Virus record (IMG/VR): IMGVR_UViG_3300045988_174371
Location: 64,001 to 128,000 of that record
Length of the DNA stretch: 64,000 bases
Reading direction: 5' to 3' (one strand)
DNA from: a virus
Position numbers and translations under genes: made by a program. Shown piece after piece: positions 156-51,107 of the stretch (its first letter is position 1; the number at the start of each line of letters is the position of its first letter). The notes under the pieces were generated by a model. The model did not search any database. It saw only the letters and a list, made by a program, of their open reading frames with translations, and was not told the origin of the DNA.

Positions 156-878
156 CTACCTCTTATAGACGTACTCTAGAAGCCTCAGAATCTCTAGGTA
201 TACCCAAATGATAGACAGCATCAGCCCAAACGCTAGAGTCCAGCCAAAAGCATCTGGCGCGCCAGCGTCCACCGCCTCACCAATTTCAGTGAAGTCCATG
301 AGGAGGCAGTAGACACCCATGCCGACGGCAAGCACTCCAAGAATAGCGCCAAGGGGTAGACCGAAAACGACGGTATCACTAATACTGAAACCAGTAAACG
401 CCTGTATTGCGATAGAAGCAAACAGATAGATGATGTATGCGACCATGCCGATAAGGACGATGCGGGTCAGCTTCGGGTTTGACCTCGCGCCGAACATATA
501 TGCCGCAAAGACTGTCATAAACGCAACAAGCGTGCCTAGTACAGCCGCCAATGCGATACCGGGGTATCGAGTCTGCGCCCACATGGTTACAGCACCAAGA
601 GCAACGCCCTCAATACCGGCATACAGCAGTACAGCCCAAGCAGGAATATTGCCGCCACTCTTGAAAGCAAGCACTAGACCAAGCACGAACGCGATAAGCG
701 CCGCCGGTAAAGCAAGTACAGGCGTGTACCAGCCGACAATACCACCAAGAAGCAAAACAGCAAACGAAAAGCCTGTCTTTGCGACGACACTGCTAGTGGT
801 TAGCGGCTCAGCGTTAGTGCCATTTAAGCCCGGAATGTCTTTCATGCGACCATTCAGATAGGGGTTACGCGCACTCAC
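156..878 (-). CDS. Bax inhibitor-1/YccA-like integral membrane protein
   Basis: 240-aa ORF with GTG start 7 nt after GGGAGGA; about seven hydrophobic helices; C-terminal IWVYLEILRLL resembles the BI-1/YccA family signature. Confidence 0.6.
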   Translation of the reverse strand: MSARNPYLNGRMKDIPGLNGTNAEPLTTSSVVAKTGFSFAVLLLGGIVGWYTPVLALPAALIAFVLGLVLAFKSGGNIPAWAVLLYAGIEGVALGAVTMWAQTRYPGIALAAVLGTLVAFMTVFAAYMFGARSNPKLTRIVLIGMVAYIIYLFASIAIQAFTGFSISDTVVFGLPLGAILGVLAVGMGVYCLLMDFTEIGEAVDAGAPDAFGWTLAFGLMLSIIWVYLEILRLLEYVYKR

Positions 879-1828: not shown

Positions 1829-3088
1829 TTAATTTGCGATAGAGTGCTTGCCATTGATGGTAGCCAGCCCGGAAATAACCCGCTGAACCTCCTCCTCGCG
1901 CTCTTTAACCACGCGCTCAGCGTCCAGGACAGCCTTATCTAAGGTGTCCTGTAGGGCATTGTTGCAGTACTGGATACACTCAACACCATTTCGACCATGC
2001 AGAGAGTTGAAGATAACTTCTAGAACCTCGTAGGCGGTGTCGAAGCCGTAAGAGTTAGCACATTCACTAATGGGTTTATGTGCAATTTCATCAATATTGC
2101 GTAGCTCCGCCTCCTGCCATGCCTGCCACTTTGCGTATGCCGCCTCCTGCTCGAAGCTTAGAGCCTCACTAGCGGTATACTTCTCAATGCATTCAGTGTC
2201 TCCTTGAGAGTCGGTGAGCATGAGCATATCCACCTGCCATACCGGGTCGGAACAGCCGGTGCATACGTCACGTTTCCTATAGTAGCTACCCAAGTCGTTG
2301 ATTGCCATGTCGTCTACATGCGCCAAGTGCTCACGGCGTAGCGTGATGGTGCCTGCCGCATTGCCTTCACTGTCGGCTAGGTAGATGGTTGAGCTATTGC
2401 CGACGGTCACCTGTAGCTTCTTAGTGGCATTGCGGGTCTCCACGGTGATAATGGTACCTTCCATGAAGCAGTAGCCGGTTGCCAGTCCATCTGCATTGGT
2501 GAGCATGTGGAACTTGCCGCTAGAGCCGCTATTGATGGCATTGTACTTGGTGTGCATCTTTGAGTCTGCTACAGCAAGTTCTTCCATCTTCTCACGAATG
2601 AGTGTAAGGGTTTCCAGTAGGGATTTCATGCCGTCATGCATATGGTTACGGGTCGCCACCAATACGTTCGCCTGCACGTCAGAAGTGATGGTGTGCGGTT
2701 CACGCTGGGAGCCTGCCATACCCTTAACGCCCTTAAGAAGCTCTCTTGCCTCATTCAGTAGCTTCACATAGCTGTCAGCTTCACTCTTAGCCGTGTCGCC
2801 TGCAAAGGTCTTGACGAGGGCTACCTGCCAGGTATCGACTTCACGCAAGCATGGCGAGGTTACGTAGAAGTTCTTACGGTAATTAGTGATGAGCTTCTGA
2901 ATGGCGTATGCGCCCTGCTGGTCACGGCTAGGGATAAGGGCATATGCTCCATCATTTAGAATTGCCATATCTCCTGCGTGTGAGGTAACGCTGTAGGCGG
3001 CGTACTTGCGCTCCTTATATGCTTCAAGGTGTTGGGTGGTTTGGGTAACAATTACGCTATCGAGAGTGAGCGCCTTAGCGTTTTCCAT
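1829..3088 (-). CDS. hypothetical protein (419 aa)
   Basis: long ORF; ATG preceded by AAAGGAGAA; no recognisable family. Confidence 0.75.
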   Translation of the reverse strand: MENAKALTLDSVIVTQTTQHLEAYKERKYAAYSVTSHAGDMAILNDGAYALIPSRDQQGAYAIQKLITNYRKNFYVTSPCLREVDTWQVALVKTFAGDTAKSEADSYVKLLNEARELLKGVKGMAGSQREPHTITSDVQANVLVATRNHMHDGMKSLLETLTLIREKMEELAVADSKMHTKYNAINSGSSGKFHMLTNADGLATGYCFMEGTIITVETRNATKKLQVTVGNSSTIYLADSEGNAAGTITLRREHLAHVDDMAINDLGSYYRKRDVCTGCSDPVWQVDMLMLTDSQGDTECIEKYTASEALSFEQEAAYAKWQAWQEAELRNIDEIAHKPISECANSYGFDTAYEVLEVIFNSLHGRNGVECIQYCNNALQDTLDKAVLDAERVVKEREEEVQRVISGLATINGKHSIAN

Positions 3089-3868: not shown

Positions 3869-4807
3869 ATGTTCCACTACCTATCACTGCCCGCGTGGGT
3901 ACTGGCAACGCTCTACATCATTATCGTGCTCATTGTGTTGTTTATAGGAGTTGCTACCTTAACGTCCTACTTAATGTTGCGACGGCAAAGGCGGAACTCT
4001 GCTGAGATAATCCCTGGCGGCGGCGAAATACAGGCGGCAGGCTGGCGAAAAGCGGTTGCTAGAGTTACTGACATTGAGGCGGTGGAGGGAGCTGGCATTG
4101 TGGCGCTTCTTACAGTCACCCTTCTTGGTATCGTTACTTGCTCACTACTGCTAATGTCGCCAATACTCATTATGGTTCCTTTGGTTGGCATACTGATGTT
4201 TCTGCCCTTGAAAAGCAAAGAGGGTGGATTGTCAGCTTCCGAAAAGTTTGGTTACTTGTCGATTGTTGCGTTGCTTCTATCTATCGCTGTTCCTGCTGGT
4301 GTAGATGCGTACTTCGTTTACAATTCTCATTCATCTGTGACGTACTATCAGGACGCTTCTGGCGGATACCATGAGTCAGCTCAGCGCAACATTCTTGCCG
4401 GGCGGGTTGTTGAGTCTCGCAAGGCGGACGGTCTGGTTGAGTACCAGTGGGGCGAGATAAGCGCGAGGGACGGCAATGTTATATTGCCGAATACTGGCAA
4501 CAGTAAAGATTCCCAGAAGCGCGTTGAGATTGTAGAAGACCTAGCGCCCGGTGAAGCGCCGTATGTTGTTCGCAGAATCGACGTTGCAAAGCCTGTGGGG
4601 GTGCCTGAAAGCTTGCGGCTTTGCCTTGCTGGTCAGGATGATGTGAAGTCGTCGCCCTGCGCCCCTCATCACGAGAGAGTGGACAAGAGAAACGTCAGTG
4701 TTATTAGCAGTATCCATATTCCTGCTGGTGAGCGAGATAAGTATGTTACCTCATCCTTGGCGGACAGTTCAGTAGCTGGTAAGGAGGAGAACTCTAATGA
4801 TTCCTAA
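3869..4807 (+). CDS. membrane protein, paralog family A (multi-TM N-terminus + conserved C-terminal domain)
   Basis: ATG at 3869 follows AAGAAAGG; TM helices; C-terminal motifs DLAPGEAPYVV and IHIPAGERDKYV shared with 6 other ORFs. Confidence 0.75.
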   Translation: MFHYLSLPAWVLATLYIIIVLIVLFIGVATLTSYLMLRRQRRNSAEIIPGGGEIQAAGWRKAVARVTDIEAVEGAGIVALLTVTLLGIVTCSLLLMSPILIMVPLVGILMFLPLKSKEGGLSASEKFGYLSIVALLLSIAVPAGVDAYFVYNSHSSVTYYQDASGGYHESAQRNILAGRVVESRKADGLVEYQWGEISARDGNVILPNTGNSKDSQKRVEIVEDLAPGEAPYVVRRIDVAKPVGVPESLRLCLAGQDDVKSSPCAPHHERVDKRNVSVISSIHIPAGERDKYVTSSLADSSVAGKEENSNDS

Positions 4808-5714
4808 TTTCGATGCTCTATGGCCCGTTGTTCTGCATCTTGCGGGACTGGCAGTGTACGTTGTTGTTGCTACAGTTCTTTATTTCCGTGTTAGGCGGAT
4901 TGATGATGCTGTGGTGGCGCGCGGTAAAGCTGAAAACATTGAGTACACATTCTGGATTTATGGTCTAGGTGGAGGCTTCCTGTCGCTTGTGGTTTCCAGT
5001 ATCTTGACACAGAGCTTAGTCCTGCCTGTAGTTGCTTTTGTGGCTGGCTTTATTGCACTGGCTGTTACGTGTGCGTATGCCTGTACACAGCCAACAATGA
5101 GCAACGGTTATTCACTTCAGGGGCTTGCCTTGCTTCGCACGTGGGTTGTTTTCACGCTTGTTTACGGGACGCTGTTCGCTGGGGTGCTGAGTATGATTGC
5201 TCCGGCTCTTCCTAAGACTTTCTTCTATAGCGCGGATGGCACTAAGACTGTCACCTTTTATCGTGGCGACGGGTTCACCCCGGTAGAGCGTGAGGTGCGC
5301 AATGAGCTGGTTGGCGTTGTTTCGGTACATACTTCGGGTAGGGACGTGACGGCAGGCGACCCTGTGTATGAGTGGGTTGAGCGAACTGATGGCGGCGAGT
5401 TGCGCCCTATCTACAAGAAGTCTAGCGGCGACCTCGGCGCATATGTCCTTATGATAAGCACTTTAAATGAAACGCCTGCCGACACGTGGGTTAGTAACGT
5501 TGAGGTAGTCAGCGACTTGAAACCTGGCGAAGCTCCGTATGCAGTCCATCAGATTACTTACAAGGTACCCAACTCATATGACGGGAAGAGCCCTCTGTGC
5601 ACTAGGTATCATTCTGCCAGGAGTAAGTGCTCAGTCAATGTTGATAGCATTAAAACGAAGGCTACTATCCACATTCCAGAGGGTTCTTACGACCAGTATG
5701 TGAAGGTTTTCTAG
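4797..5714 (+). CDS. membrane protein, paralog family A
   Basis: AAGGAGGAG RBS; overlaps the previous stop by 11 nt; motifs DLKPGEAPYAV and IHIPEGSYDQYV. Confidence 0.8.
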   Translation: MIPNFDALWPVVLHLAGLAVYVVVATVLYFRVRRIDDAVVARGKAENIEYTFWIYGLGGGFLSLVVSSILTQSLVLPVVAFVAGFIALAVTCAYACTQPTMSNGYSLQGLALLRTWVVFTLVYGTLFAGVLSMIAPALPKTFFYSADGTKTVTFYRGDGFTPVEREVRNELVGVVSVHTSGRDVTAGDPVYEWVERTDGGELRPIYKKSSGDLGAYVLMISTLNETPADTWVSNVEVVSDLKPGEAPYAVHQITYKVPNSYDGKSPLCTRYHSARSKCSVNVDSIKTKATIHIPEGSYDQYVKVF

Positions 5715-5726
5715 GAGGTAAGTAGA

Positions 5727-6791
5727 GTGGTTCTGTTGATGAGTGTTGCTGATGGCGTGTACATGTACCCGCTTATCGGGTTCTTGGGGTTGAGTGCTGT
5801 CGCGTTTGTTGCGTCACTGTTTTCTTGGTGGCGTTATCGTGGAGCGGCTGAGCAGGTGAGTTCCGCTATTAACCGCGTGCAGGCGGCTAGGGAGGATGCT
5901 GAGCGGCTACTAGAAAAGCGCGAACAGGAGCTTCTTGACGAGTATAGCCTCAAGCGCAAAGGCTGGGCAGATAGGGGTGATGCTTACTTTGATGAGATTG
6001 AGCGGATGTGGGCTGATTATCGCAAGAACCCGGCAAAGTATGCAGGCGACAGGCTATCTGGTGAGGAGTCTGGTAACCGCAGTAAGCTTGAGTTCATCTA
6101 CAATTCCTACATGGGCGTTGGGTTGCTACTGGCGGTGCTACTACTACTGACTTTCACCGTTGTAGGATTATGGGGTATGGCGATTCTTGCCGGGGTTCTA
6201 TTCTTCCTATCGGCAGGTTGGGCTGTCCTTGATGACTCTGAGCTGAGGGGGACGAAGCTTTGGGCTATCCCCGCTAGTATTGCCGCAAGCGCGCTTGTGG
6301 CGCTATTGCTAATCCCTGTTTCTGGGATGGCGACGAATAGCAACCCGCCGCCGGGATGGATTGCACACACTCATGAGGTTACGCTTGCTCAGCAGGCGGA
6401 CGGCACATATGGTGTAGGTGAGCCTGCTAGGATGCGTCTAGACGGTACGGTAACTAAGAGTAAAGAGCCTGATGCTGACTACTCCTGGGTTGAGCTGGAC
6501 TCACGTAATGTGAAGCGGTCTTACGACTCGTACTATTACAGGGGTGTTGAGAAGCAGGTTCGTGTTATGGATGACCTTGCGGCAGGCGAAGCTCCATATG
6601 TCGTGCATCACCATGTGTTCAATGTGCTGGATGGGTATGCTGATGGTGAGGTCTGTGCCGCCAGGTTTAGTGCTTCACCTGCCCTAACTACCTCATGCTC
6701 TGACCGTAATGCGTGGAGTAAGCGTGATGATGCTGTTATTCATATCCCTAGGGGTGAGTATGAGCGCTGGGTAGTCGCTAAGCAGAAATGA
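5727..6791 (+). CDS. membrane protein, paralog family A (with extra N-terminal coiled-coil segment)
   Basis: GTG start after AGGAGG; motifs DLAAGEAPYVV and IHIPRGEYERWV. Confidence 0.8.
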   Translation: MVLLMSVADGVYMYPLIGFLGLSAVAFVASLFSWWRYRGAAEQVSSAINRVQAAREDAERLLEKREQELLDEYSLKRKGWADRGDAYFDEIERMWADYRKNPAKYAGDRLSGEESGNRSKLEFIYNSYMGVGLLLAVLLLLTFTVVGLWGMAILAGVLFFLSAGWAVLDDSELRGTKLWAIPASIAASALVALLLIPVSGMATNSNPPPGWIAHTHEVTLAQQADGTYGVGEPARMRLDGTVTKSKEPDADYSWVELDSRNVKRSYDSYYYRGVEKQVRVMDDLAAGEAPYVVHHHVFNVLDGYADGEVCAARFSASPALTTSCSDRNAWSKRDDAVIHIPRGEYERWVVAKQK

Positions 6792-6851
6792 TAGGCGGTT
6801 CCCCATTAGCTGTACTCACTGTTCTTGTGGGGCATTTTGATGGGGCATAAA

Positions 6852-6899
6852 GGATAAGCGGCGGAACTTCATGTTTTCTTGAAGTTCCGCCGCTTATCC
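6852..6899. terminator. bidirectional hairpin terminator between convergent genes
   Basis: GGATAAGCGGCGGAACTTCA / TGAAGTTCCGCCGCTTATCC perfect 20-bp inverted repeat. Confidence 0.75.
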
Positions 6900-6941
6900 T
6901 TAGCATTATGAGGGAATGACCTTCTAGCGTTCCGTCGTTGC

Positions 6942-8354
6942 TCAGTCGGTGAAGGCGGCGCTACCAGCTTCCCAAATGTCGTTAGGTGCCCATTCCTGAA
7001 TGCCCTTTCGGGTCTTCTGGTAGCCCTTCCACAGGGAGCGCCAGGCAGGGAGCCCAGTATTGGCAATCAGGGTGTCTTTGTGTTCCTCAAGTGCCTGTTG
7101 CACGTCTTCATACAGCTCGGGTGTTGCGTTGCTTTGCGTCTGGAGAGCACGCAAATACTTTACAAGTTCAGGGATGTACGGAGCGCCCGTCCGAAGGCGT
7201 CGCTGGACAGTATCGCTAGGAGTTTCCCTAAGCTCGTCCATAACGCTTTCGAAACGGCGTTTCGCCTCAATGTATTGTTGCGCCTCTTCGGAGGTGCTAC
7301 CAGGCATTGAGGCAACAGGGTCAAGGGTCGCGTAGTCAAGCCCTTCATAGGTGATGTTGCCGTGACCGTCAGGGGTAATGCAGAGAGTTGCCGTGTCGCC
7401 GTCAGGGAAAGTGATGACGGCTTCCTGCTTGTCAGCATCAACAGCTGTAAGATGTGCCAGGAGGAAGCTTACCGGCTGGGTGGGGTACATGCCTTCACTG
7501 ATGGGCTTGTATGCGTTGAATCGGGTGAGGATGTGGTCACCTTCGTGGAGAGTGCCGCCGCCGGGGATTGCTAGCCCTCCACTGCGTCCGCTAGGTGCCA
7601 CAGGTGCCTGCTGGAACTTCTCCCATTCGTTGCGTGCGTCAAGATACTGCTTGTACTTGTTGTAGGAGCGGCGAAGCTCTGCGAGCGCCGCTTCATACTC
7701 TTCCTTGATTCGTCCAGTGGTTCTCTTAGTTGCGGTACGCATCTTACGGATGGTGTCCGTGTAGTCGAGAAAGAGGCTGAACGCGGTACCTTCGAAGGCG
7801 TAGCCGTCGTTGATGCCGTCTACTACGGCGGGGAGCTTATGGTTGGCTTCCTGGACTAGGCTCTCCTGTGCTTCCCATGCGAGGATTACCTCGTTGATGA
7901 GGGCTTTCTCTTCTTGGGGGATATGGTAGATGTGGCTACAGTCTGCGCTGTAGCGGTGGACGAGGATGTCTTCATCGTACTCATCTCCTTCTTCTAGGAA
8001 GGATAGCTTGTAGATTGGTTCACCAGCGGAGTAGGTCACATTATGGTAGAACTTGCCGGTGTACTGCTTGCCGGTGGGATGCAGGGCTACGGTGATGTAG
8101 CCCTCTGCGTCGATGGAGATGACTTTGAGGATGCTGTCGGCATTGACGAGAACGGGTCGATGCTTAGCGCTTTCCCATGCTTTCCCGTTAAGGTCGATGT
8201 AGCGGGTGGGGTCGAATAGGTTTGCGGTGACGAGAATATCGCCAGCGGAGACGTTGAGTTCGTTGAGTGTCTTTACGATTCCGCTCGTTGTGTTCCTCCA
8301 CTTACCTGTGCGGTAGCGGTGGGGGTAGACGCGGTTAATCTTCGTGCTGGTCAT
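6942..8354 (-). CDS. hypothetical protein (470 aa), member of the GD-motif modular family
   Basis: long ORF; contains NVSAGDILV module and a later DGDTATLCITPDGHG beta-like module similar to other large ORFs here. Confidence 0.75.
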   Translation of the reverse strand: MTSTKINRVYPHRYRTGKWRNTTSGIVKTLNELNVSAGDILVTANLFDPTRYIDLNGKAWESAKHRPVLVNADSILKVISIDAEGYITVALHPTGKQYTGKFYHNVTYSAGEPIYKLSFLEEGDEYDEDILVHRYSADCSHIYHIPQEEKALINEVILAWEAQESLVQEANHKLPAVVDGINDGYAFEGTAFSLFLDYTDTIRKMRTATKRTTGRIKEEYEAALAELRRSYNKYKQYLDARNEWEKFQQAPVAPSGRSGGLAIPGGGTLHEGDHILTRFNAYKPISEGMYPTQPVSFLLAHLTAVDADKQEAVITFPDGDTATLCITPDGHGNITYEGLDYATLDPVASMPGSTSEEAQQYIEAKRRFESVMDELRETPSDTVQRRLRTGAPYIPELVKYLRALQTQSNATPELYEDVQQALEEHKDTLIANTGLPAWRSLWKGYQKTRKGIQEWAPNDIWEAGSAAFTD

Positions 8355-9976: not shown

Positions 9977-10453
9977 TTAAATGTAGAACTCTACGCGGTG
10001 GTAGGTCGAGCTGATTTTGCCATTCTTTTCTGCGTGCTCGGGGCGACCGTCGCACACCTGAACGTCGTGGCTAATTTCCCTGCGGTAGGGGTGTTCGTTG
10101 TCGGTTCCTGCGGGGTCTACACTTTCGCGTACCCAGTCTTCGGTTCCGACGTAGCGCCATTCAAAGGTTGCAGGTTCGTAACGTTCCACCATTCGAGAGG
10201 TTCCTTCCCATTGACCCTCTGAGTTGATGTGGTAACCAGCTTCTTCTTCGAACCAGCGCCTAGATGGTTCGAAGTTCTGAATCTCAATGCTTGAGTCCAC
10301 CTGCTTTTCATTGACGATGCAGGTATTGGGTGTAGAGCGGATGCCTAGGATGACTGCTACGGCAATAGGGATGATGGCTATGGCGATTATAAGACCGCCC
10401 ACAATATCGTCGCCTGTGAACTTCACGACCTGCGAGGTGTTCTCCTTAGGCAT
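9977..10453 (-). CDS. N-terminally membrane-anchored protein, paralog of 14843-15310
   Basis: single N-terminal TM helix; NTCI.NE ... FEWRYVGTE.W ... YDVQVCDGR aligns with 14843-15310. Confidence 0.75.
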   Translation of the reverse strand: MPKENTSQVVKFTGDDIVGGLIIAIAIIPIAVAVILGIRSTPNTCIVNEKQVDSSIEIQNFEPSRRWFEEEAGYHINSEGQWEGTSRMVERYEPATFEWRYVGTEDWVRESVDPAGTDNEHPYRREISHDVQVCDGRPEHAEKNGKISSTYHRVEFYI

Positions 10454-10826: not shown

Positions 10827-11978
10827 TTAGTTGGTCAGGAAAGCGACACTAGCAGGCTCCCATTCTTCACCAAGATTCATTGAGTCAATGGTGTAGCTAT
10901 ACCCGGTGAGGTCTTGGTTTAGCGGCATTTCTGCCGTGAGGCAGATAAGCGGCAACGGGACATTGCTTGATGCGCCAATCCTGGTAACTACCGCAGATTC
11001 CTTATTGATGAACGTTACCGTCACCGAACCCCGGCGTTCTACTAGGTTGCCTAGGTATTTAGCGGGGTTAGTGTCCTTGAGGTGGTAGAAGCCTGAGTTC
11101 TCATAAAGGAAGCTCTTAAATGCCCATCCATCACCCTTATTGAAGTCCACGTACATAGGGAGCCGCGTGTAGTTGAGAGCGGGCGCATCACTGTTATCCT
11201 TAGATGCGACGTACATCTCCAGGACTTTAGATACATATTCGGCATCACTGCGACACTGGTTTCGCATAGGGGTGCGCGGTTTATCCCCTTGTAGCTCGTA
11301 GGCAATTCGCCAGAATGCGTCTTGCAGTTCGCTTGCGCGAGACTGCTCCTTAGACTCTGCTACACCCTTCAAGAGGTGGTGGCGAATCTCCTTAGGAATA
11401 GACTTGTCGTACATCATCTCTTTGTCAATGGTGTTCGTGTAGACGGGGACAAAGGTTCCGTATGTGGTAGGTTTCTTGCCCTGCTTTTCCCATCCAAACA
11501 CTCCACGCATACTGAGGTAATCCCTACTGCTGGCAGTGATGCCGCAATATTCCCACACATCAATCCCCGGCGATAGGATGCGTTCTCTATTGGTGCGTGG
11601 TCGATAGCTGTGACTGTCAGTAATCACTTCCATGCCTCGGCAGGGGTAGTCGTAAAAGTGGGTGGCTTTCCCGCCGCTCAGCAGATACTCTTTCAGCCAG
11701 AGGTTATACGCGGCTAGATAGTCAGGTTCCTCCACTTTCTCCGCCTTAACGGTTGCAAAGTTGATTCCAACCCTCCCCTTCAGGCGGTGTGCCCGCGCAT
11801 GGTTGATACGGGGCTCCGGCAAGAGGACAGTACTGGTCTTGCTTTGACTAGGCGCAGTTTGTGCAGTATTCACCTTAAGAAGGGTGATACTGTTCTTAGG
11901 GTCGCGCCATGCGGCACGGTAGGTGTTGCCGCGAGCGCCTGCGTATCGTGCAGTGAATTTCGAGAGCACGTCTTTCAT
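10827..11978 (-). CDS. hypothetical protein (383 aa), paralog family B
   Basis: aligns along its length with 13630-14793 (NFATVKAE.VEE.DYLA, THFYDYPC, YTNTIDKEMM, FVDFNKGD.WAF, LTGYSYTI). Confidence 0.8.
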   Translation of the reverse strand: MKDVLSKFTARYAGARGNTYRAAWRDPKNSITLLKVNTAQTAPSQSKTSTVLLPEPRINHARAHRLKGRVGINFATVKAEKVEEPDYLAAYNLWLKEYLLSGGKATHFYDYPCRGMEVITDSHSYRPRTNRERILSPGIDVWEYCGITASSRDYLSMRGVFGWEKQGKKPTTYGTFVPVYTNTIDKEMMYDKSIPKEIRHHLLKGVAESKEQSRASELQDAFWRIAYELQGDKPRTPMRNQCRSDAEYVSKVLEMYVASKDNSDAPALNYTRLPMYVDFNKGDGWAFKSFLYENSGFYHLKDTNPAKYLGNLVERRGSVTVTFINKESAVVTRIGASSNVPLPLICLTAEMPLNQDLTGYSYTIDSMNLGEEWEPASVAFLTN

Positions 11979-13629: not shown

Positions 13630-14793
13630 TTAGCAGGGCTGGAAAGTGACCTTTGCGGGCTCCCATACGTCGCCGGGTTCCACGGATGCGATGGTGTAGC
13701 TATATCCAGTGAGATTCTGACCGGCAGGCTTGGTTGCCGTGAGGATAATGAGGGGCGTGCGGTTGCCCACATCGCCACCAGTAATGACTGCCACTTTGTC
13801 AGTGATGAACATTGCGGTGGCGTTCCTCATGTGAGATAGGTATTCTGCGGGGTCGATACCTTTAAAGTGGGAGAACTTTGAGTCGTCATAAAGGAATGTT
13901 TCAAAAGCCCAGTTGTCGCCTTTGTTGAAGTCCACAAACATGGTCATGGTCGGCTGACTGAGGGTGGGCGCGGCGCTGTTATCCTTGGAGTTGGTGTACC
14001 AGTTAATAGCGCGTCCTACTCGCTCAGCTTCATTGTCGCGGCTATTGCGGTAGTCCCTACGCTTGGATGCATGGGCGGACTCTCCACTCTTCGCGTATTC
14101 GCACATAATGGAGTGAAAGTCGAGGCTCCATGCGCGGGCTTGCTTCGCTTCTTCTGCTACGCCGTGTCGTATGTGAAGGCGGACACTTTCTGGCACAGAC
14201 TCATCATGCATCATTTCCTTGTCAATGGTGTTCGTGTATGCCGGTACCCAATGACCGTCATAGGCGACAGCGGTTTTGCCGCCGTTAGTCCAACCGTACA
14301 TGTTATTGTGACAGCGGTCACCCGTGAAGTCGCTCACATAGTGGTTGGCGGTAAACTCGCGGGACAGAATGTAGTTGCGAGAATTAGCGCCACACATCCC
14401 ATACGTAGACGATGGGCGCTGGTTACGGGGGTTGGTCACCACTTCAATACGCGGGCAGGGGTAGTCGTAGAAGTGGGTAATCCTGTTGCCTTGCAACAGG
14501 TAGTCCTTGAGCCAGCTGTTGTACATGGCTAGATAGTCAGTTTCCTCTACTTCTTCCGCCTTGACGGTTGCGAAGTTGGGCTTAATTCTTTCTCTCTGGA
14601 GGCGCACCCATGCAGGGTTGATACGGGACTCCGGCTGGAGAGGAGAGCCAGCTTCGGTTTTACTAGGGACAGCTTGTGCAGTATCCACCTTAAGGGGGAT
14701 ACTGTTGCCGGGGTCGCGCCAGGTGGCGTGAAAAACGGTGCCTTGCGCAGTGTCTTCCGTGCCAATAAGTCGGCTAATGAGGTTAGTGAACAT
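13630..14793 (-). CDS. hypothetical protein (387 aa), paralog family B
   Basis: paralog of 10827-11978; conserved CGAAAGGGTG leader. Confidence 0.8.
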   Translation of the reverse strand: MFTNLISRLIGTEDTAQGTVFHATWRDPGNSIPLKVDTAQAVPSKTEAGSPLQPESRINPAWVRLQRERIKPNFATVKAEEVEETDYLAMYNSWLKDYLLQGNRITHFYDYPCPRIEVVTNPRNQRPSSTYGMCGANSRNYILSREFTANHYVSDFTGDRCHNNMYGWTNGGKTAVAYDGHWVPAYTNTIDKEMMHDESVPESVRLHIRHGVAEEAKQARAWSLDFHSIMCEYAKSGESAHASKRRDYRNSRDNEAERVGRAINWYTNSKDNSAAPTLSQPTMTMFVDFNKGDNWAFETFLYDDSKFSHFKGIDPAEYLSHMRNATAMFITDKVAVITGGDVGNRTPLIILTATKPAGQNLTGYSYTIASVEPGDVWEPAKVTFQPC

Positions 14794-14842: not shown

Positions 14843-15310
14843 CTAAATGTAGTAGGAAACAACAGAGCGGTGGGAGCGAATCGAGCCGTTAATGTCGGCA
14901 TACTCTGCGCGTCCATCACAGACCTGCACGTCGTATTCTTTGACTCGACGGTAAGGGGCGGTGTTATCTCTGCCTTCCGGTTCGCGCGACTCATGCGCCC
15001 AGTTTTCAGTACCTACATAACGCCACTCAAAGCTTGCAGGCGAAGAGTACTCAACATCCTTCATGCATGATTCATACTTTGCCGTGGTGGGATTCAGGCA
15101 ATAGCTGAACTCGCGGTCTGTCCATTTACGGGAAGGGGTGTAGTTGCGAGTCTCAATAGGCGTATCCACCACCGTTTCATTGATAATGCAGGTATTGGGG
15201 TAGGTGTAAGTTGAGCACGCCGTCAGTCCCACAATAGGAGCAAGACATAGGGTGATAGCTCCGGCGGCGCGAGTGATGCGCGGCTTAGCGGCAGGCTTAT
15301 TGGCGCTCAT
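14843..15310 (-). CDS. lipoprotein, paralog of 9977-10453
   Basis: ATG at 15310 after GAAAGGAAA; signal peptide with lipobox LTAC; the rest aligns with 9977-10453. Confidence 0.75.
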   Translation of the reverse strand: MSANKPAAKPRITRAAGAITLCLAPIVGLTACSTYTYPNTCIINETVVDTPIETRNYTPSRKWTDREFSYCLNPTTAKYESCMKDVEYSSPASFEWRYVGTENWAHESREPEGRDNTAPYRRVKEYDVQVCDGRAEYADINGSIRSHRSVVSYYI

Positions 15311-15393
15311 GGGTATATTTCCTTTCAATGTGAGGGTTTGTCCCGCCTGACACTAAATCTCAGGTGCCAGGCGGGGTCTAATTGGAAGCTTTA

Positions 15394-16073: not shown

Positions 16074-16158
16074 GTGCCTGTGGTGGAATGGTAGACACGC
16101 CAGCTTGAGGGGCTGGTGTCCGACACAGGACGTGCGGGTTCGAATCCCGCCAGGCACA
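16074..16158 (+). tRNA. tRNA-Leu (anticodon GAG)
   Basis: hand-folded cloverleaf: acceptor GTGCCTG/CAGGCAC, D-arm GTG-GAATGGTAGA-CAC, anticodon stem CCAGC/GCTGG with loop TTGAGGG, long variable arm, T-arm GCGGG-TTCGAAT-CCCGC; CCA not encoded. Confidence 0.9.
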
Positions 16159-16289
16159 CTAGTCACCCCCTATATGGGGTGGTGAGAAGCTTCAGGCTAA
16201 TCTTCTGCCCCCTGCATGGCTTCATCTCATGTAAACCTGGTGGTAATCCCATCACTGGAGTTAAAAGACCTAACGAAAGGTATGTCATT

Positions 16290-16538
16290 ATGTCCGATAT
16301 TCAGTACCTCGGTAACGACGAGTTTAAGATTTCCCGCAATGAGCTTGCAGGGCTCCTTAAGTCTGACGCTATCCTCTCTGCGCTTGAATGGGCAGGTGTA
16401 GATAATTGGTGTGGCTGGGATGATGCGCGCGGCGATTACGTCCGCGAATACGTAGAAGAGCACGAGGATATGGAAGCCGAAGACCCGTGGTTTGATGAGA
16501 TTGTCGCTCACAAGCTGAAGCTCATCGAAGAGGCATAA
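16290..16538 (+). CDS. small acidic hypothetical protein (82 aa)
   Basis: ATG at 16290 after CGAAAGG; followed by a strong terminator. Confidence 0.7.
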   Translation: MSDIQYLGNDEFKISRNELAGLLKSDAILSALEWAGVDNWCGWDDARGDYVREYVEEHEDMEAEDPWFDEIVAHKLKLIEEA

Positions 16539-16655: not shown

Positions 16656-17126
16656 CTAGCTTTGCAAGAACCTTTCCTTCACCGCAACAAGTAGCGCAAA
16701 CCCGCCAATATACCCAAGGATACCTGCACCTGTCCCAAACGTTGCTACGCCAAGAATGGCGATAGTGCCGATTACCACTGCAACGAAGGTGAGCTTCAAG
16801 CTATTGTTTACGTCTTTCCATGTAGCAGGTTCGTCACTTCCTGGGTTCTCATCGAGGAGTACGACGACGCTAAAGAGAGAGGGGAAGAATGCGACCATTT
16901 GAGCGCCATCAAAGGATACCAGCAAGGAAGTTATAAAGAATAGCGCCGCAAGCACCGCTTTATGCGCAGTGAGCAGAGTGCTTGGCTTTCCATGCCATGT
17001 CTCACCATCAGGCGACAAGCCCATATTGGGCGCAAACACTGTACTATTGATGCAGTAGAACATGGTGGCGTTGAACGCCGCCCATACGGTGAGTCCAATA
17101 AGCGGTATTGTGATATTGGCAGTCAT
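16656..17126 (-). CDS. multi-TM membrane protein, paralog family J
   Basis: ATG at 17126 after AGAAAGGGG; N-terminus IPLIGLTVWAAFNATMFYCINSTVFAP aligns with 20104-20562. Confidence 0.75.
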   Translation of the reverse strand: MTANITIPLIGLTVWAAFNATMFYCINSTVFAPNMGLSPDGETWHGKPSTLLTAHKAVLAALFFITSLLVSFDGAQMVAFFPSLFSVVVLLDENPGSDEPATWKDVNNSLKLTFVAVVIGTIAILGVATFGTGAGILGYIGGFALLVAVKERFLQS

Positions 17127-17266
17127 GGTGTGTCGCCCCTTTCTTGGCGTAGACCGTGAGCTAATCAAGTTTGCGCTGAGCTAGAGGCGCGTCCCTTCTA
17201 TTGCTCTCTTGGGGGTGTGGTTTCACATATGCGCTTCTAGGTGATGGTCTAGCGCCTATCTTTCTA

Positions 17267-20103: not shown

Positions 20104-20562
20104 CTAGTCGCTACTTTTCTTGAGCAGGATAAAGAGTGCGCAGATACTGAGCGCAAGCGGTATGAGGACCCCAAGGAAGAGCCATTCAAAAAGTGACACC
20201 ATACTGAGAGCCGTTACCGGGAACATTACTCCAATACACCAATTAACCCCCTTCCAACTTGTCACCCTTGCCCCATCCAGCATCTTGTGCACGAGTACCC
20301 CAATGTAGAACAGCGGATAGAAGAACACCTCGAACGGGGCGGGCTTATATAACCATGTGGGACACAAGGCAATCATTAGAACGATAAGTGCCACAAGGTA
20401 GATTGCAAGTAGCGCCGCCTGCACTCTTCCAGTTGGCTCCTTACCACTATTGGCACCTATCCCAGGGGCGAATGTGGCACTGTTGATGCAGTAATAAACT
20501 GTGGCATTGAAGGCAAGCCACAAGGCGAGACCCATAAGGGGTGTTTCGATACCGGCAGGCAT
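20104..20562 (-). CDS. multi-TM membrane protein, paralog family J
   Basis: ATG at 20562 after GAGAGGAA; aligns with 16656-17126. Confidence 0.75.
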   Translation of the reverse strand: MPAGIETPLMGLALWLAFNATVYYCINSATFAPGIGANSGKEPTGRVQAALLAIYLVALIVLMIALCPTWLYKPAPFEVFFYPLFYIGVLVHKMLDGARVTSWKGVNWCIGVMFPVTALSMVSLFEWLFLGVLIPLALSICALFILLKKSSD

Positions 20563-20793
20563 GTGATATGTGTTCCTCTCTGAGGTGGTGCTACGCGGGC
20601 TACCCATACGAGATAGCCCGCGTAGCATGTTTGGTTGGTGACTGTCTGGGGCTTACGGCTGAAAGCGGTGATAGTGGGCACTTTTTCGGCAATTATTGCC
20701 AATTATTGCACCATAGTGCATAACTCACCGACTAGGGGAAAGGCTCGTTTCTCCGTATACCGGAATACCCATTTTTTCTACCCCTAGATGGCT

Positions 20794-22358: not shown

Positions 22359-23531
22359 ATGCGCAACCTTGACCTCTCCACCCTGAATGCAGGCGACATT
22401 CTGCTCGCAGTGTATAACGACAACTTCGTTCGCACTTTCTGGAAGGGTGTTCACCCTAACCTGCTGGTCGTACACTCTGTAGACCCGGCAAGCTCCACTG
22501 CCATTGTCGCCGCCGCCGGGGAGGGAAACTACGGTATGTACCTGCTGAGCATTAACGAAGACGGCATCACCTTTGAAAGGTTCGCTGATGCCACCGATAA
22601 GTTCGCCCCGGTTCAGGTATTCCAGTTCACCCCCGCCGAAGCTCAGGCACAGGGTTTGGTTCGCCGCCTGAATGCGGAGGGTAAGCTGTTCAAGTTCCTT
22701 GAATCCATCAATGATGACGCTCTTATCCACGACGTGCGCCAGGCGGTAGCAAAGGAATACTCTCTTCACTACTTCATGGGTAAGCCCAACACCCTTCTTG
22801 GTGACCTGGAACACGCCCGCAAGGTAACGCAGAACATGTACACTGTTGCAGAGAATGAGTATGAGCGAATCTTGCGAGAAAAAGGTGAGATTCTGGATAA
22901 GATGGTCGAACTTGTGGATGAGGCTATCGCTAAGGTAAACCCGCTCCTTGCTGGCTCTGGCATGACCTCCAACCGCTCCACTGACGCTAACACCATTCAG
23001 CACCACTTTGAATACACTAAAGACGCTCACACTTTCCGCGTGGGTAGCACTTTCGCTGTACATGATGTAAACTACACGGTTACTCGCGTCTCTAAGTCCC
23101 GCGCATACGTAGTGAAGACTGATACGGGTGAAGATGCTGGCTACGTCACCTACACGAAGAGCCGCGGTGTGCGCCTGCATGTCGGCAATGGCGAGCCCGC
23201 TGTGTCTTTCCGCTATTCCCCTGTCCCGGTTGCTAATGCGGATGACATGCAGGCATTTGATGCGACTAAGCGCGAAATTCACGACATTGCCACTGAGTGC
23301 ATGGCAAACCTTCGAGACCTGCTACTCAAGGTTGCCGTCAGCAATAAGTTTGGTGATACCCTGAGCCGCGTATACCGCCGCAATATCGTACCTCACGGCG
23401 TTACCACCACTACCTCCCTCCTGTATGACCTGCTTTCCGAAATTGAAGCCGTAAAGGAAGCCCTGCATGAGCAGGCTGAGGTGAGCATGTTCAAGATGGA
23501 GCGCCTGATTACCCAGACCTACGGCAAGTAA
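22359..23531 (+). CDS. hypothetical protein (390 aa), paralog family D
   Basis: aligns end to end with 34036-35211 (N-terminal LN.GDI.L, C-terminal F.ERLI...YGK); GAAAGGA RBS. Confidence 0.8.
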   Translation: MRNLDLSTLNAGDILLAVYNDNFVRTFWKGVHPNLLVVHSVDPASSTAIVAAAGEGNYGMYLLSINEDGITFERFADATDKFAPVQVFQFTPAEAQAQGLVRRLNAEGKLFKFLESINDDALIHDVRQAVAKEYSLHYFMGKPNTLLGDLEHARKVTQNMYTVAENEYERILREKGEILDKMVELVDEAIAKVNPLLAGSGMTSNRSTDANTIQHHFEYTKDAHTFRVGSTFAVHDVNYTVTRVSKSRAYVVKTDTGEDAGYVTYTKSRGVRLHVGNGEPAVSFRYSPVPVANADDMQAFDATKREIHDIATECMANLRDLLLKVAVSNKFGDTLSRVYRRNIVPHGVTTTTSLLYDLLSEIEAVKEALHEQAEVSMFKMERLITQTYGK

Positions 23532-23988: not shown

Positions 23989-24068
23989 GTACCTACATGG
24001 GTTACAGGAGCCACCTCAAAGCACAGGGGGGGGAGAAGCTTGGATTATAAGCTACTCTTCCCACTGCT

Positions 24069-24191
24069 GGGTGGGTCAGGGATTTTCCCTGGCGGTACCC
24101 CCCCCCGCCAGCCGAAGCCAGCCTTCCTGGTCTTGACGTGTTAGCGTCCGTTTAGTTTACCCACCTCTCCCAGTCTCTCACAGGCGAGGTG
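24069..24191 (-). ncRNA. unclassified structured RNA, copy A
   Basis: no ORF; diverged duplicate of 60449-60579 with conserved blocks and compensatory changes in hairpins. Confidence 0.5.
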
Positions 24192-24200
24192 TATTGGTTG

Positions 24201-24710: not shown

Positions 24711-24862
24711 GGGTGGTGTTTCTCTTTCTGTGGATGCCCTGCGGGGTTGCAGGGGTTTGTAGTTGAGTGTTTGTTGCGCGCCCCACTGCCCGATGATGGG
24801 TGGTGGGGCGCGCCGGTGGGCGGGTATCCTTTGGTGACCTGCGGGATGCCCACCCAAAGCCT

Positions 24863-25975: not shown

Positions 25976-26037
25976 TGGTCAGCTCCTTTGAAGGTAGGTC
26001 ATTCATGATTACTGGTTACTTCCGAACCAATAATCAT

Positions 26038-26067: not shown

Positions 26068-26123
26068 GCGCTACGGCTTTCCTTAGATGCTTAAAACATG
26101 CCCCCAAGGAGGAAATATAGATG

Positions 26124-30613: not shown

Positions 30614-31531
30614 ATGACCATTCTTCAAAAGTATATGATGGGCTCTTCCGCCGCGCTCCTAACATGCTTCCTAACGGCGGCGCTACTAATCGCCATTATT
30701 GCCTCTGTTCGCCGCTATCTTGATGCGCGGGCGGTAAGGAAGGGTTTGGCTTTACCAAGCGGCGCTTCCTCTTGGTTCACCTACGCATACGGTGTCGTAG
30801 CTCTGCTTCACCTAATCATTGCCCTTACTTTGGCAGGGGACAACCAGGACATGTTTGTCACTGTTTTTTGGACGGGTCTAGCAATACCCTTGATGGTACT
30901 AGTCCTCTATCACGTCATTCAAGGCATAGGTAATGATAGTGCCCCTCAGGATGCCCCCAGCGAATCCGACCTCATATCGCAGTATAAGGCGACATACTTC
31001 GACACTCTTCTACTGACTGCAATATGTACTATCTTTGCGACCATTTTTGCCGTCGTCGGTAGCACTGTCTATGAGAGTAAAACGGTCGTTACCGAGGTTA
31101 TAGATGGGCGAGTAGTGGAGTATCGAGGCGAAATTGAACTCACCTCTAACGGTGTAGCTGTCACTATAGCGCCCGCAACGAGTGAATATGAAGAATACGA
31201 CTATGTTTCGAAGAACCATCAGCGGAGGGAAGCTACGAGCACTGTTGCCACCTGGCTTGAGCGTGACTCTAGCGGCTCTGTAAAGACCGTCTCTATCGAC
31301 ACGGGCGGGCGGGGCGGTTTCAACATTGCCGATGACCTACCTGCCGGTGAAGCGCCTTACGTCACCTACACGCCTCAGTACAGCTTGGATAGTTACAGTA
31401 AGCCAGGTGATGCCCTCTGCGTCATGAAGCGTGACACTGGTTGCCCGCTAAATGCACGCCATATCTATGATTCTGTCACGATACATATTCCTGCTGGGTC
31501 TACAGACAGGATGGTGAGCACGAAAGCTTAA
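30614..31531 (+). CDS. membrane protein, paralog family A
   Basis: TM-rich N-terminus; motifs DDLPAGEAPYVTY and IHIPAGSTDRMV. Confidence 0.8.
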   Translation: MTILQKYMMGSSAALLTCFLTAALLIAIIASVRRYLDARAVRKGLALPSGASSWFTYAYGVVALLHLIIALTLAGDNQDMFVTVFWTGLAIPLMVLVLYHVIQGIGNDSAPQDAPSESDLISQYKATYFDTLLLTAICTIFATIFAVVGSTVYESKTVVTEVIDGRVVEYRGEIELTSNGVAVTIAPATSEYEEYDYVSKNHQRREATSTVATWLERDSSGSVKTVSIDTGGRGGFNIADDLPAGEAPYVTYTPQYSLDSYSKPGDALCVMKRDTGCPLNARHIYDSVTIHIPAGSTDRMVSTKA

Positions 31532-40465: not shown

Positions 40466-41332
40466 CTATTCGCTAACCACGGGCACCATCTTATCGACAG
40501 TACCGGCAGGAATGTGGATAATGGTGCGTGCTTTCGTGAACTTCACTGTTTCAGTCCTGTCATCACAGCGGGGGTATAGACCGAAATCTTCGGGAGCATA
40601 CCTGTAGATACATGCTTCCTTACCGGCGGCAATAGCGCCACCCTTCACCTGGTACTCAACAATGCGTTCTACGCGGGCTTCCGTATCGGTAGCTGGCAGG
40701 TCATCCTTGAGTGTGACCTCGTATCGGTCATCGCTCACCTTTTGAACAGAGCGTGTCGCAAGGGCTCCATCTTCCTTGCGTTCTACCCAGGTATAGGTGT
40801 CGCCACTGGTGTTGCTTCGTAAGCTGTTGATGGGGTAGGTGTGGGTATCACCTTCTAGCTTGTGTCCGTTAGCGTCCAGGTGATAGGTGACGGTTTGGTC
40901 GAATGTTGCGTTTGCCGCTTTCTTCGCATTCTCCGTTGTGTTTGAGGATATGGCAAGTCCTACTATTGAGGCTGTTGCGGCTAGGCACGCGATGGCAATC
41001 AGTAGCGTTTTACAATATGCGCCACCAGCGCTATTGCCGGGGTCTACTAGGAAGAATATGCCGCCAAGCACTAACGCGAGAAGCAAAGCAAACCCTGCAA
41101 ACCCAACCAACCCATTCTTGAGCACATACGCGGTGGTTAGGAGCGCTATTGCGCAGGCTACCCAAAAACAATACATGCCCACAAGGGCGTTCATCCAAGC
41201 TTCCTCATCGTCATACTCTTCATCTTTGGTCGCCTTAGCAGATATGCAGATGGGAATAATGCCCGCAAAGATGATGAGGAAAATAAAGCCTGTTACAGCT
41301 ATGGCGGTTAGCCCGGTTTCAGGGTTGGGCAT
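40466..41332 (-). CDS. membrane protein, paralog family A (subfamily 2)
   Basis: motifs LKDDLPATDTEARVERIVEY and IIHIPAGTVDKMV; close to 49139-50017 and 50232-51107. Confidence 0.8.
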   Translation of the reverse strand: MPNPETGLTAIAVTGFIFLIIFAGIIPICISAKATKDEEYDDEEAWMNALVGMYCFWVACAIALLTTAYVLKNGLVGFAGFALLLALVLGGIFFLVDPGNSAGGAYCKTLLIAIACLAATASIVGLAISSNTTENAKKAANATFDQTVTYHLDANGHKLEGDTHTYPINSLRSNTSGDTYTWVERKEDGALATRSVQKVSDDRYEVTLKDDLPATDTEARVERIVEYQVKGGAIAAGKEACIYRYAPEDFGLYPRCDDRTETVKFTKARTIIHIPAGTVDKMVPVVSE

Positions 41333-49138: not shown

Positions 49139-50017
49139 CTATTCGCCGGTCATGGCAACCATCTTATCCATACTGCCAGCGGGAATATGGATGATAGTGC
49201 GCGACTTACTGAACTCTGCCCTAGTTTTGCCTTCGTCACATTCAGGGAGCGCGTGGAAGAATCTATTGTATCCGTATCCGTCATTGACGGCGCACACTTC
49301 CTTCCCGGCGGCTACCTCTGCACCCTTCACCTTATACTCTACGATGCGTTCTACGCGAGCTTCAGTGCTGGTGGCGGGCAGGTCATCCTTGAGGGTGACC
49401 TCAAACAGGTTGCCGTCACCCCTATTTACGCTAACGTGCACTAGAGTACCGTCGCCTTTACGCTCTAGCCAGCTGTAGGTGTTTCCATTATTGCTGGTTC
49501 GCAGGTTGCTAATAGGGGAGGTGTTAGGTTCCCCTTCCAGCTTATTATTGTTGCTGTCTAGGTGGTAGGCGACCACCTGATTGTATTGCGCGTCTTCTGC
49601 TTCTTGCGTCGCCTGAGTAACGTTGATGCAGAGCGCTACCAAGCCCGTAATTACCGCGAACGCTAGAAGCAGAAGGACATCTCGCTCGTTTGACTCGTAC
49701 CGCTGACGCGCGTCCATCTTGGCAATTTCCTCAGTCGCAGAGAAGAGGTAGATGATGTAGGCAAGGTATGTCCAGCCGAAACCGAAGATGGCGAACAGAA
49801 TCAGTCCGGGGTTGCCCATGACGATACCTGCAACCAATACGACGGCGAGCCATACTAGCTGAGCATAGTAGAACCGTGTTCGGGCACGCCTATACGCCTT
49901 TTCCTGCTCATCTACCGGCATCTTACTGATACGTGAAGGGATAACCCGCCCATACACAATGAGGGTGGCAATAACGGAAAGGACAGCGAAGCTAATCCAG
50001 ATGATTGCAAAATCCAT
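49139..50017 (-). CDS. membrane protein, paralog family A (subfamily 2)
   Basis: motifs LKDDLPATSTEARVERIVEY and IIHIPAGSMDKMV. Confidence 0.8.
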   Translation of the reverse strand: MDFAIIWISFAVLSVIATLIVYGRVIPSRISKMPVDEQEKAYRRARTRFYYAQLVWLAVVLVAGIVMGNPGLILFAIFGFGWTYLAYIIYLFSATEEIAKMDARQRYESNERDVLLLLAFAVITGLVALCINVTQATQEAEDAQYNQVVAYHLDSNNNKLEGEPNTSPISNLRTSNNGNTYSWLERKGDGTLVHVSVNRGDGNLFEVTLKDDLPATSTEARVERIVEYKVKGAEVAAGKEVCAVNDGYGYNRFFHALPECDEGKTRAEFSKSRTIIHIPAGSMDKMVAMTGE

Positions 50018-50231: not shown

Positions 50232-51107
50232 CTATTCGCCGGTTACGGTAACTATCTTGTCCATGCTACCAGCGGGGATATGGATAACCGTTCGGGTCTT
50301 TACGAAGCGCGCCGCCGCCGCACCCTTATCGCAGATGGGAAGGATGCCAAGGTCGCCCCTGCTGAACTTCTCGACACACGCCTCCTTACCAGCGGATGCG
50401 TCATCGCCCTTAACCCTGTACTCAACAGAACGCTCTACGCGCGGTTCCGTGTCAGTTGCTGGCAAGTCATCTTTGATGGTGACCTCATACCGCTCATCAG
50501 GCACCTTCTCCACGGTTCGCGTATCGAAGGTTCCATCCTCGGCGCGTTCCGCCCAGCTATAGCTGGTTCCTTCACGGTTGGTTCGCACGCTGGTTACTGG
50601 GTATGTGTGCGTGTTACCTTCCAGCTTTTGGTTATTAGCGCCTATGTAGTAGGTGATGCTCTGGCTGTACTGCGCATCTTCTGCCGCCTGTTCAGCCCTA
50701 AGCTTTTCGGCGTAACCCGGAAAGCTCATTACAAGTCCTAGCGCAATAAAGATACCAACCCCACTGGCAACAACTTTAAAGTATAACTCTAGTTCACCGC
50801 CACAGTTTTCATCTGCCCAGAGAAAACAGCAGATTATCCCGCCAACAGAAACACCTCCCAGCAGGAAGAACATGCCATCACGAACAATTACCGCAAGTGC
50901 AAAGAGGGCGATAGTGCAGATACCCAGGAAGCTTAGTGCCGCCAATGCCGCCCAACCCAGGAAGTCAGGGCAATCAATCCGTTTACCTGTCTTCCGGTAT
51001 CGCACTACATAAGCTATCGTAACTGCCGGAATGATGACCGCGAAAACAGCGAAGAAGATGCCGCCCGTGGTCATGATTACGTTCAGCCATGCATTATATT
51101 TCTCCAA
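50232..51107 (-). CDS. membrane protein, paralog family A (subfamily 2)
   Basis: TTG start; motifs IKDDLPATDTEPRVERSVEY and VIHIPAGSMDKIV. Confidence 0.8.
   Translation of the reverse strand: MEKYNAWLNVIMTTGGIFFAVFAVIIPAVTIAYVVRYRKTGKRIDCPDFLGWAALAALSFLGICTIALFALAVIVRDGMFFLLGGVSVGGIICCFLWADENCGGELELYFKVVASGVGIFIALGLVMSFPGYAEKLRAEQAAEDAQYSQSITYYIGANNQKLEGNTHTYPVTSVRTNREGTSYSWAERAEDGTFDTRTVEKVPDERYEVTIKDDLPATDTEPRVERSVEYRVKGDDASAGKEACVEKFSRGDLGILPICDKGAAAARFVKTRTVIHIPAGSMDKIVTVTGE

Follow-up and report, generated by a model that had tools for sequence, protein, structure and literature searches.

An orphan family of membrane proteins with a conserved, most likely extracytoplasmic domain on giant phage-like elements from the human mouth

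The closest described systems are the superinfection-exclusion proteins of phages, the Mce operons of actinobacteria and the paralogous families of orphan genes (ORFans) in jumbo phages and giant viruses. The exclusion proteins, which include T4 Imm and Sp, P22 SieA and SieB, Sie2009 and Ltp of TP-J34, are phage-encoded, membrane-anchored proteins of accessory regions that act on the envelope, and the lactococcal Sie2009 as well as Ltp display a domain outside the Gram-positive membrane. The Mce operons encode six paralogues, MceA-F, which form a heterohexamer of extracytoplasmic beta-barrel domains. Jumbo phages, which are common in the human mouth, often carry orphan paralogue families. The subject of the present analysis is a family of at least nine membrane proteins encoded by an uncultivated element, IMG/VR record IMGVR_UViG_3300045988_174371; seven of them lie in positions 64,001 to 128,000 of that record, a stretch of 64,000 nucleotides that is termed the window and numbered from its first letter.

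A comparison with these systems reveals likenesses and differences. The family resembles the exclusion proteins in being membrane-anchored, located in an accessory region and, as far as can be predicted, phage-encoded and envelope-acting. However, the known exclusion proteins are single genes of 80-190 residues, whereas this family consists of nine paralogues of ~300 residues in conserved arrays, with no sequence or profile similarity to the former and no arms-race signature. The Mce operons are alike in their tandem paralogues and conserved order, in the combination of a membrane anchor with a beta-rich extracytoplasmic domain (predicted here) and in the same likely host phylum. Unlike the Mce proteins, the family has four anchor helices instead of one, lacks genes for a YrbE/MlaE permease or ATPase beside the array, and has no Pfam MlaD/Mce match and no Foldseek match in PDB, which holds MCE structures. 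As in jumbo phages and giant viruses, one genome holds many paralogue sets, and this family is the largest in the window; most such ORFan families are undescribed, whereas this one has a defined architecture, a predicted topology and an internal gene order that is conserved throughout its clade.

The explanation favoured here is that these genes constitute a clade-restricted orphan family of membrane proteins, two of which, B and C, usually joined by A, form a hetero-oligomeric complex in the host envelope; taken jointly, these propositions fall a little short of probable and are offered tentatively. The seven open reading frames (ORFs) of the window, copies A to G (Table 1), share one architecture, in which four variable membrane helices precede a conserved all-beta C-terminal domain of ~145 residues. 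A preliminary sequence-only reading had proposed this common architecture, and all seven ORFs are confirmed at the coordinates and on the strands it gave, each intact and with a Shine-Dalgarno-like site 8-10 nt 5' of its start. A hidden Markov model (HMM) of the domain, searched against the six-frame translation of the window, recovers exactly these seven (E 1e-44 to 1e-64) and nothing beyond them at E<=10. In pairwise BLASTP, nearly every two copies are significantly similar over their C-terminal ~160 residues (E 1e-5 to 1e-65). The C-domains of E, F and G are 52-55% identical to each other (E 1e-57 to 1e-65), that of F being 52% identical to both E and G; the pairs outside this group show 25-41% identity (E 1e-5 to 1e-10), and the weakest are three A-versus-EFG pairs (E 0.001-0.008). 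The N-terminal halves have no significant similarity in BLASTP, barring weak matches of E with G (E 1.7e-4) and E with F (E 0.007), which bears out the earlier remark that the N-termini are far more divergent than the C-termini.

Searches of public data place the family in a narrow range of sequences. The seven-sequence profile detects 266 clusters at 90% identity, all unannotated and all on contigs of up to 380 kb, and an exhaustive HMMER search of 1.84 billion representatives at 50% identity yields only 55 proteins at E<=1e-3, with the same architecture and likewise encoded on unannotated contigs, here of 200-380 kb. Two of the 55, P0163 (2792 residues, with Invasin_D3 and Ig repeats) and P0167, have multiple profile matches and long lists of unrelated Pfam matches and are treated as compositional or repeat artefacts rather than members. 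A broader profile of 34 sequences finds nothing new or annotated, two scans of 185,579 GTDB species genomes reveal no cellular homologue, and the INPHARED phages give no match to 20 kb of the window in megablast or to copy C in tblastn. The C-terminal domain has no significant match in Pfam, PHROGs or NCBIfam, and the PDB gives none by sequence; none of the seven proteins matches a PADLOC-DB family at E<=0.1. Foldseek with the model of the C-domain reaches a best E of 0.2 against PDB, with template-modelling (TM) scores below 0.25, and best TM-scores below 0.4 against PDB and BFVD together. The earlier judgement that the domain belongs to no recognisable family therefore holds for Pfam, PHROGs, NCBIfam, PADLOC, PDB and BFVD, and neither the profile searches nor Foldseek produced a clear match to a family with a mundane role. 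The sole public name of any member is "hypothetical protein", in a metagenome-assembled genome (MAG) assigned to Candidatus Saccharibacteria (MCG5105640.1), a placement that is more probably due to faulty binning than to the host. By these searches the family is confined to one clade of elements, with no detectable relative of known function or structure, and both the protein family and the fold are new to every library searched; the novelty is one of family and fold, not of function.

Kyte-Doolittle hydropathy predicts four membrane segments in most copies, and an AlphaFold2 model of full-length E (predicted local distance difference test, pLDDT, 74) contains four long helices at residues 4-36, 42-71, 74-96 and 102-140. 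Modelled alone, the C-domain of E (pLDDT 78.6, predicted TM-score 0.74) forms a seven- or eight-stranded all-beta meander, in which two cysteines flank a poorly predicted loop of ~30 residues (pLDDT around 50). The invariant columns in the alignment of the seven copies are W-x-E, D-L, the two cysteines, I-H-I-P-x-G and a final V. All motifs quoted in the sequence-only reading are present, except that the "D" of its supposedly invariant IHIP.G..D..V is E in copy C. The cysteine pair is kept in at least 90% of 34 diverse members and probably forms one disulfide in an exported domain; disulfides in exported domains are common in Actinobacteria.

The loop between transmembrane helices 1 and 2 (TM1-TM2) is rich in lysine and arginine in six of the seven copies (5-18 such residues), and both the short N-terminal tail and the very short TM2-TM3 loop lack charged residues. 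Hydropathy combined with the positive-inside calculation gives an N-out/C-out orientation, and with four helices the rule places the C-terminus outside in six of the seven copies. Because the basic TM1-TM2 loop is cytoplasmic by this rule and the cysteine pair is near-invariant, the C-terminal domain most likely faces the outside of the cytoplasmic membrane, in agreement with its first description as extracytoplasmic-looking. Copy C carries an additional charged insert of ~95 residues between TM1 and TM2, which is predicted to be helical and cytoplasmic and is conserved in the orthologues P0138, P0139, P0143 and P0145. In some relatives (P0148, P0155 and P0135), the same domain is preceded by a single TM helix; since such variants exist, the membrane part would be an interchangeable anchor and the C-domain the functional unit of these proteins.

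A membrane part of four helices could also be that of holin-like or membrane-permeabilising proteins controlling lysis timing or membrane potential. In keeping with such a role, copy B alone weakly matches a PHROG of holins and anti-holins (PHROG 5871, E=0.089), and a BaxI_1 (TMBIM-type) membrane protein is encoded in the same region. However, the PHROG match, which spans 22 residues of TM sequence, falls short of significance, the TM helices are less conserved than any other part of the proteins and can be replaced by a single helix, no endolysin gene is adjacent, and no lysin domain occurs among the 45 long ORFs of the window that were scanned. Additionally, nine copies and a conserved ectodomain of 145 residues are not features of holins, and this role is considered very improbable.

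The divergence of the N-terminal halves had first been ascribed to diversifying pressure, as in superinfection exclusion, receptor masking or decoys, where each paralogue would block a different competitor under arms-race selection. A membrane-anchored, outward-facing domain would suit this role, as would an accessory region with many genes for membrane proteins and for counter-defence (gp5.9), and the loop between the two cysteines varies more than the rest of the ectodomain. The ratio of nonsynonymous to synonymous substitution rates (dN/dS) was estimated by the Nei-Gojobori method between orthologues, separately for the N-terminal half and the C-domain of genes A-E. The respective values are 0.33-0.39 and 0.16-0.27 for A, 0.18-0.26 and 0.10-0.16 for B, 0.15-0.45 and 0.17-0.30 for C, 0.26 and 0.15 for D (orthologue in IMG/VR contig L003), and 0.50 and 0.11 for E, the cysteine loop of which gives 0.20. 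No value approaches 1, and the highest is 0.50; with overall ranges of 0.15-0.50 (N-terminal half) and 0.10-0.30 (C-domain), the proposed diversifying pressure is not borne out. Among 36 EFG-type proteins, column entropy is highest in the TM region (1.9-2.4 bits) and lower in the cysteine loop (1.6), the beta core (0.9) and the last strand (0.8). These data indicate purifying selection across both halves, weaker in the membrane-embedded part, and the N-terminal divergence looks like relaxed constraint on a membrane anchor. The divergent half is membrane-embedded and the exposed core is highly conserved in all paralogues, which is the opposite of what an arms race of decoys or masking proteins would be expected to produce.

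Within the trio, A is the fastest-evolving gene, being 58-75% identical among genomes in which B and C are 83-97% identical. Synonymous divergence from L011 is 0.40-0.55 for A, 0.06-0.20 for B and 0.01-0.20 for C, and the high value of A suggests an exchange of A alleles by recombination. Population-level turnover is seen in the A-type only, which has been lost twice (broken in one close relative and nearly deleted in another; see below). Such turnover and apparent allele exchange would fit exclusion, a role that would be most plausible for the fast-turnover A-type, but no finding supports it specifically. For the family as a whole, exclusion is judged unlikely: dN/dS stays at or below 0.5 throughout, the cysteine loop included, the orthogroups and the B-C order described below are stable to ~30% identity, and there is no similarity to SieA/SieB, Imm, Sp, Sie2009, Ltp or any PADLOC model. 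The match of copy C, alone among the copies, to SieB (PF14163; E=0.11, 12.5 bits against a gathering threshold of 26) lies over TM1 and the charged insert and is noise.

The near-invariant polar residues of the ectodomain raise a further alternative, in which it would be an enzyme acting on cell-wall or surface polymers, with the invariant Glu, Asp and His as an active or metal site and with paralogues that differ in substrate. The strong purifying selection on W-x-E, D(D)L and I-H-I-P is consistent with this function, as is a family member beside a sortase and an LPXTG-type adhesin in a related element. However, neither fold nor profile searches link the domain to any hydrolase or transferase, the His of I-H-I-P is replaced by Tyr in P0161, and the D-L motif is missing from P0161 and P0146. 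An enzymatic role is accordingly regarded as improbable, and both the enzymatic and the holin-like explanations are weaker than superinfection exclusion.

The gene order of the family carries most of the argument for a complex. Best-hit analysis resolves five orthogroups, A, B, C, D and EFG, each with orthologues in divergent genomes, and the paralogues appear from this to be old, stable and subfunctionalised orthogroups, not a rapidly turning-over set. In a survey of 20 public-metagenome loci centred on C-type genes, a B-type gene lies directly upstream of the C-type gene in 13, down to about 30% identity. The order is A-B-C in L011, L013, L015 and L018; B-C follows an A broken by deletion and frameshift in L012 and an A cut to its last 37 codons in L014; and L022-L028 contain B-C pairs that are ~30% identical to the window proteins. 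Among the other loci, L017 has A-C, C stands alone in L016, L019 and L021, and L020 combines C with a separate four-gene array, A'-B'-A''-C', which also occurs in L009 (the locus around P0137); L029 and L030 match only weakly and in part, with D rather than C as their best paralogue in the window. The distant loci share no conserved non-family neighbour, and the array itself is the conserved unit. The two 419-residue neighbours in the window (Table 1) were considered as a partner family and rejected, as they are not homologous to each other. Deeply conserved gene order generally marks physically interacting proteins, and since the B-C adjacency is kept to ~30% identity, a hetero-oligomer would be the most likely arrangement.

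In the mechanism proposed for the hetero-oligomeric complex, the family belongs to phage-like elements of the human mouth, uncultivated and ~300-380 kb in size, with a probably actinobacterial host. A loosely constrained N-out/C-out anchor of four helices would hold the tightly constrained all-beta domain, which probably has one disulfide flanking the variable loop, at the outer surface of the cytoplasmic membrane. B and C, in most cases with A in front of them, would be co-transcribed and translationally coupled and would most likely assemble, with or without A, into one complex, and the D and EFG copies would be expressed as separate units. Genes in the accessory "host-takeover" region would supply the complex in the course of infection, and its conserved ectodomains may engage a conserved envelope component or each other and in this way remodel or guard the host envelope. 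A more ambitious version, in which A, B and C, perhaps with D and EFG, are subunits of a novel envelope-spanning or envelope-modifying machine of giant phages in actinobacterial hosts, with a new beta-fold ectodomain, is rather unlikely.

Several points weigh against the complex and its proposed setting. The domain has no homologue of known function from which its role could be read, and the sole basis of the hetero-oligomer is conserved gene order; C occurs without B in three of the loci (L016, L019 and L021), and A is dispensable. The topology comes solely from hydropathy and the positive-inside calculation, the TM1-TM2 loop of copy E is acidic, and the one-TM variants are ambiguous in topology. 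The poor prediction of the cysteine loop means that the lack of a fold match could partly reflect model error. Finally, no capsid or terminase gene is seen in the sequence covered.

The arrangement of the copies within the window supports the description of A, B and C as a translationally coupled trio, which is fair in view of the 11-nt overlap of A and B (ATGATTCCTAA) and of the AGGAGG site of C, which overlaps the TAG stop of B and lies 8 nt before the GTG start of C. ATG 3869 is the true start of A, rather than the start of the longest ORF at 3701/3704, because the orthologues P0128 and P0150 start at the same residue. The trio, D, F and G are separate hairpin-terminated units. Unusually long hairpins (17-25 bp), perfect or near-perfect, are observed 3' of many genes of the window, where a consensus terminator scan missed them; they may be the standard terminators of the element and could serve to map its transcription units. 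A scan of the region around the trio with sigma-70 and terminator consensus sequences performs no better than on shuffled sequence. In a k-mer comparison of the upstream regions of the copies, only short words are shared, and only by F and G, probably as a leftover of duplication.

Copy E lies downstream of thyA, a 179-residue ORF, the dihydrofolate reductase (DHFR) gene and a 125-residue ORF. Synteny with ThyA and DHFR is kept in L001 and L002, and in L007/L008 with a one-TM variant of the family, which in the L007 cluster has 187 residues; a gene for a TnpB/Cas12f-like protein is found a few kb from the latter cluster. The 179-residue ORF was considered as a degenerate one-TM member and rejected, given no HMM match and only noise in the Pfam scan.

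Two further copies, 1-4 kb upstream of the window on the parent contig, bring the family to at least nine. One of them is split between two reading frames and is either a pseudogene or the result of an assembly indel. This copy and the degraded A-type genes of two relatives could be taken to mean that the family consists of decaying duplicates or mis-called, functionless ORFs. However, all seven copies of the window are intact, with Shine-Dalgarno sites and terminators, orthologues exist on hundreds of contigs, and dN/dS lies at 0.1-0.5; decay is effectively refuted by the measured purifying selection, and several pseudogenes among the seven, which the sequence-only reading had named as grounds to abandon its view, are not found.

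Table 1. Coordinates of the family copies and of other features (window numbering unless a locus is named).
Feature	Coordinates	Strand	Family HMM E	Description
Copy A	3869..4807	+	4e-52	312 aa; A-type; opens A-B-C operon; GAAAGG site 9 nt upstream
Copy B	4797..5714	+	3e-44	305 aa; B-type; AAGGAGG site inside 3' end of A
Copy C	5727..6791	+	6e-50	354 aa; C-type; GTG start
Copy D	30614..31531	+	4e-47	305 aa; D-type; stand-alone unit
Copy E	40466..41332	-	5e-64	288 aa; EFG-type
Copy F	49139..50017	-	2e-60	292 aa; EFG-type; monocistronic unit
Copy G	50232..51107	-	4e-64	291 aa; EFG-type; TTG start; tandem with F, own terminator
Eighth copy	L004 2302-3177	-		Intact; upstream of window on parent contig
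Ninth copy	L004 1-733	-		EFG-type; frame changes after "...KMEGETH"; ~3.5-4.3 kb before window position 1
Hairpin after C	6850..6901	.		22-bp stem, 100% complementary, 8-nt loop; between convergent C (+) and 6942-8354 (-); probable bidirectional terminator ending the trio
Hairpin after D	31551-31596			3' of D stop codon
Hairpin after F	49068-49125			3' of F stop codon
Hairpin between G and F	50171-50217			
419-aa ORFs	1829-3088; 39158-40417			Rejected as partner family
BaxI_1 gene	156-878	-		240-aa Bax-inhibitor-1/YccA-like membrane protein (PF12811)
tRNA-Leu(GAG)	16074-16159			Just upstream of gp5.9-like ORF
gp5.9-like ORF	16290-16538	+		82 aa; Pfam PF25708 (T7 gp5.9 RecBCD inhibitor), E=1.8e-11, 44.2 bits, cut-off 24.5
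GC peak	24001-26000			GC 0.589 vs ~0.51 elsewhere; spans ORFs 24201-24857 and 24863-25975 (-)
tRNA-Arg(CCG)	26123-26196			Adjoins GC peak
Paralogue set	13630-14793; 10827-11978			
Paralogue set	60680-61450; 61609-62343; 53280-53990			
Paralogue set	14843-15328; 9977-10453			
Paralogue set	33961-35211; 22359-23531			
Paralogue set	20104-20628; 16656-17168			
Adhesin and sortase	L005 3841-8753			1237-aa antigen I/II-type adhesin and sortase beside a D-type member
TnpB/Cas12f-like gene	L007 7697-9277			526 aa; PF07282

Copy C is found verbatim on the parent contig, of 360,715 bp, from a human oral metagenome (PRJEB6997; ERZ989713 k127_64826), and a close relative of the element is the IMG/VR contig UViG_3300045988_174689 of 306,861 bp; the window itself has no nucleotide match to any deposited phage. 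The window consists mostly of ORFans, with two tRNAs, and a Pfam and PHROGs scan of its 45 long ORFs matches only thymidylate synthase (ThyA), DHFR, the BaxI_1 membrane protein and a DUF7448 protein. Its genes are arranged in long same-strand blocks, and 20 of 74 have predicted TM helices. More than 12 other paralogous pairs or trios with 23-52% identity are present (examples in Table 1), all of them ORFans and several of them membrane proteins, from which gene duplication appears pervasive in this genome. The gp5.9-like ORF suggests a counter-defence gene and speaks for an origin from a phage. Because of the same-strand blocks, the paralogue sets, the abundance of TM proteins and ORFans and the gp5.9-like gene, the window is in line with the accessory "host-takeover" region of a jumbo phage, and the element as a whole would be a phage, judging from its membership in IMG/VR and its gene content. 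The segment with the peak in GC (guanine plus cytosine) content may have been acquired recently.

Inocles, giant extrachromosomal elements of oral Streptococcus, have a GC content of 24-32% (PMC12340149). The window, at ~51%, is not compatible with this range, and the identification of the element as an Inocle was rejected. A Neisseria host was likewise rejected, with zero copies of the DNA uptake sequence GCCGTCTGAA in the window.

The host is probably an actinobacterium, to judge from homologues and neighbouring genes. The main clue is the BaxI_1 gene, which is 90-99% identical in related elements and whose nearest named cellular homologues all belong to Actinomycetota (35-42% identity), a gammaproteobacterial MAG standing much lower in the list. 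Additionally, the best phage matches to ThyA are mostly from Microbacterium, Gordonia, Rhodococcus and Arthrobacter phages, with two Geobacillus-type phages among them, and a distant family member adjoins a sortase and an AgI/II adhesin on a related element. The latter, an 89.8-kb scaffold (L005), also encodes proteins with PspA, SocA_Panacea and Phage_VG64 domains near the adhesin and sortase, and such surface-adhesin cargo is unusual on a phage-like element.

To our knowledge, the clade has no cultured member, and the majority of its genes are unexplained. The family provides a concrete handle on how these phages manipulate the Gram-positive cell surface and could serve as a marker gene for the clade. 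If its function is exclusion, it would be an unusually elaborate, multi-gene form of it; if B and C do form a complex with a new fold, the family would represent a new type of phage-encoded envelope structure.

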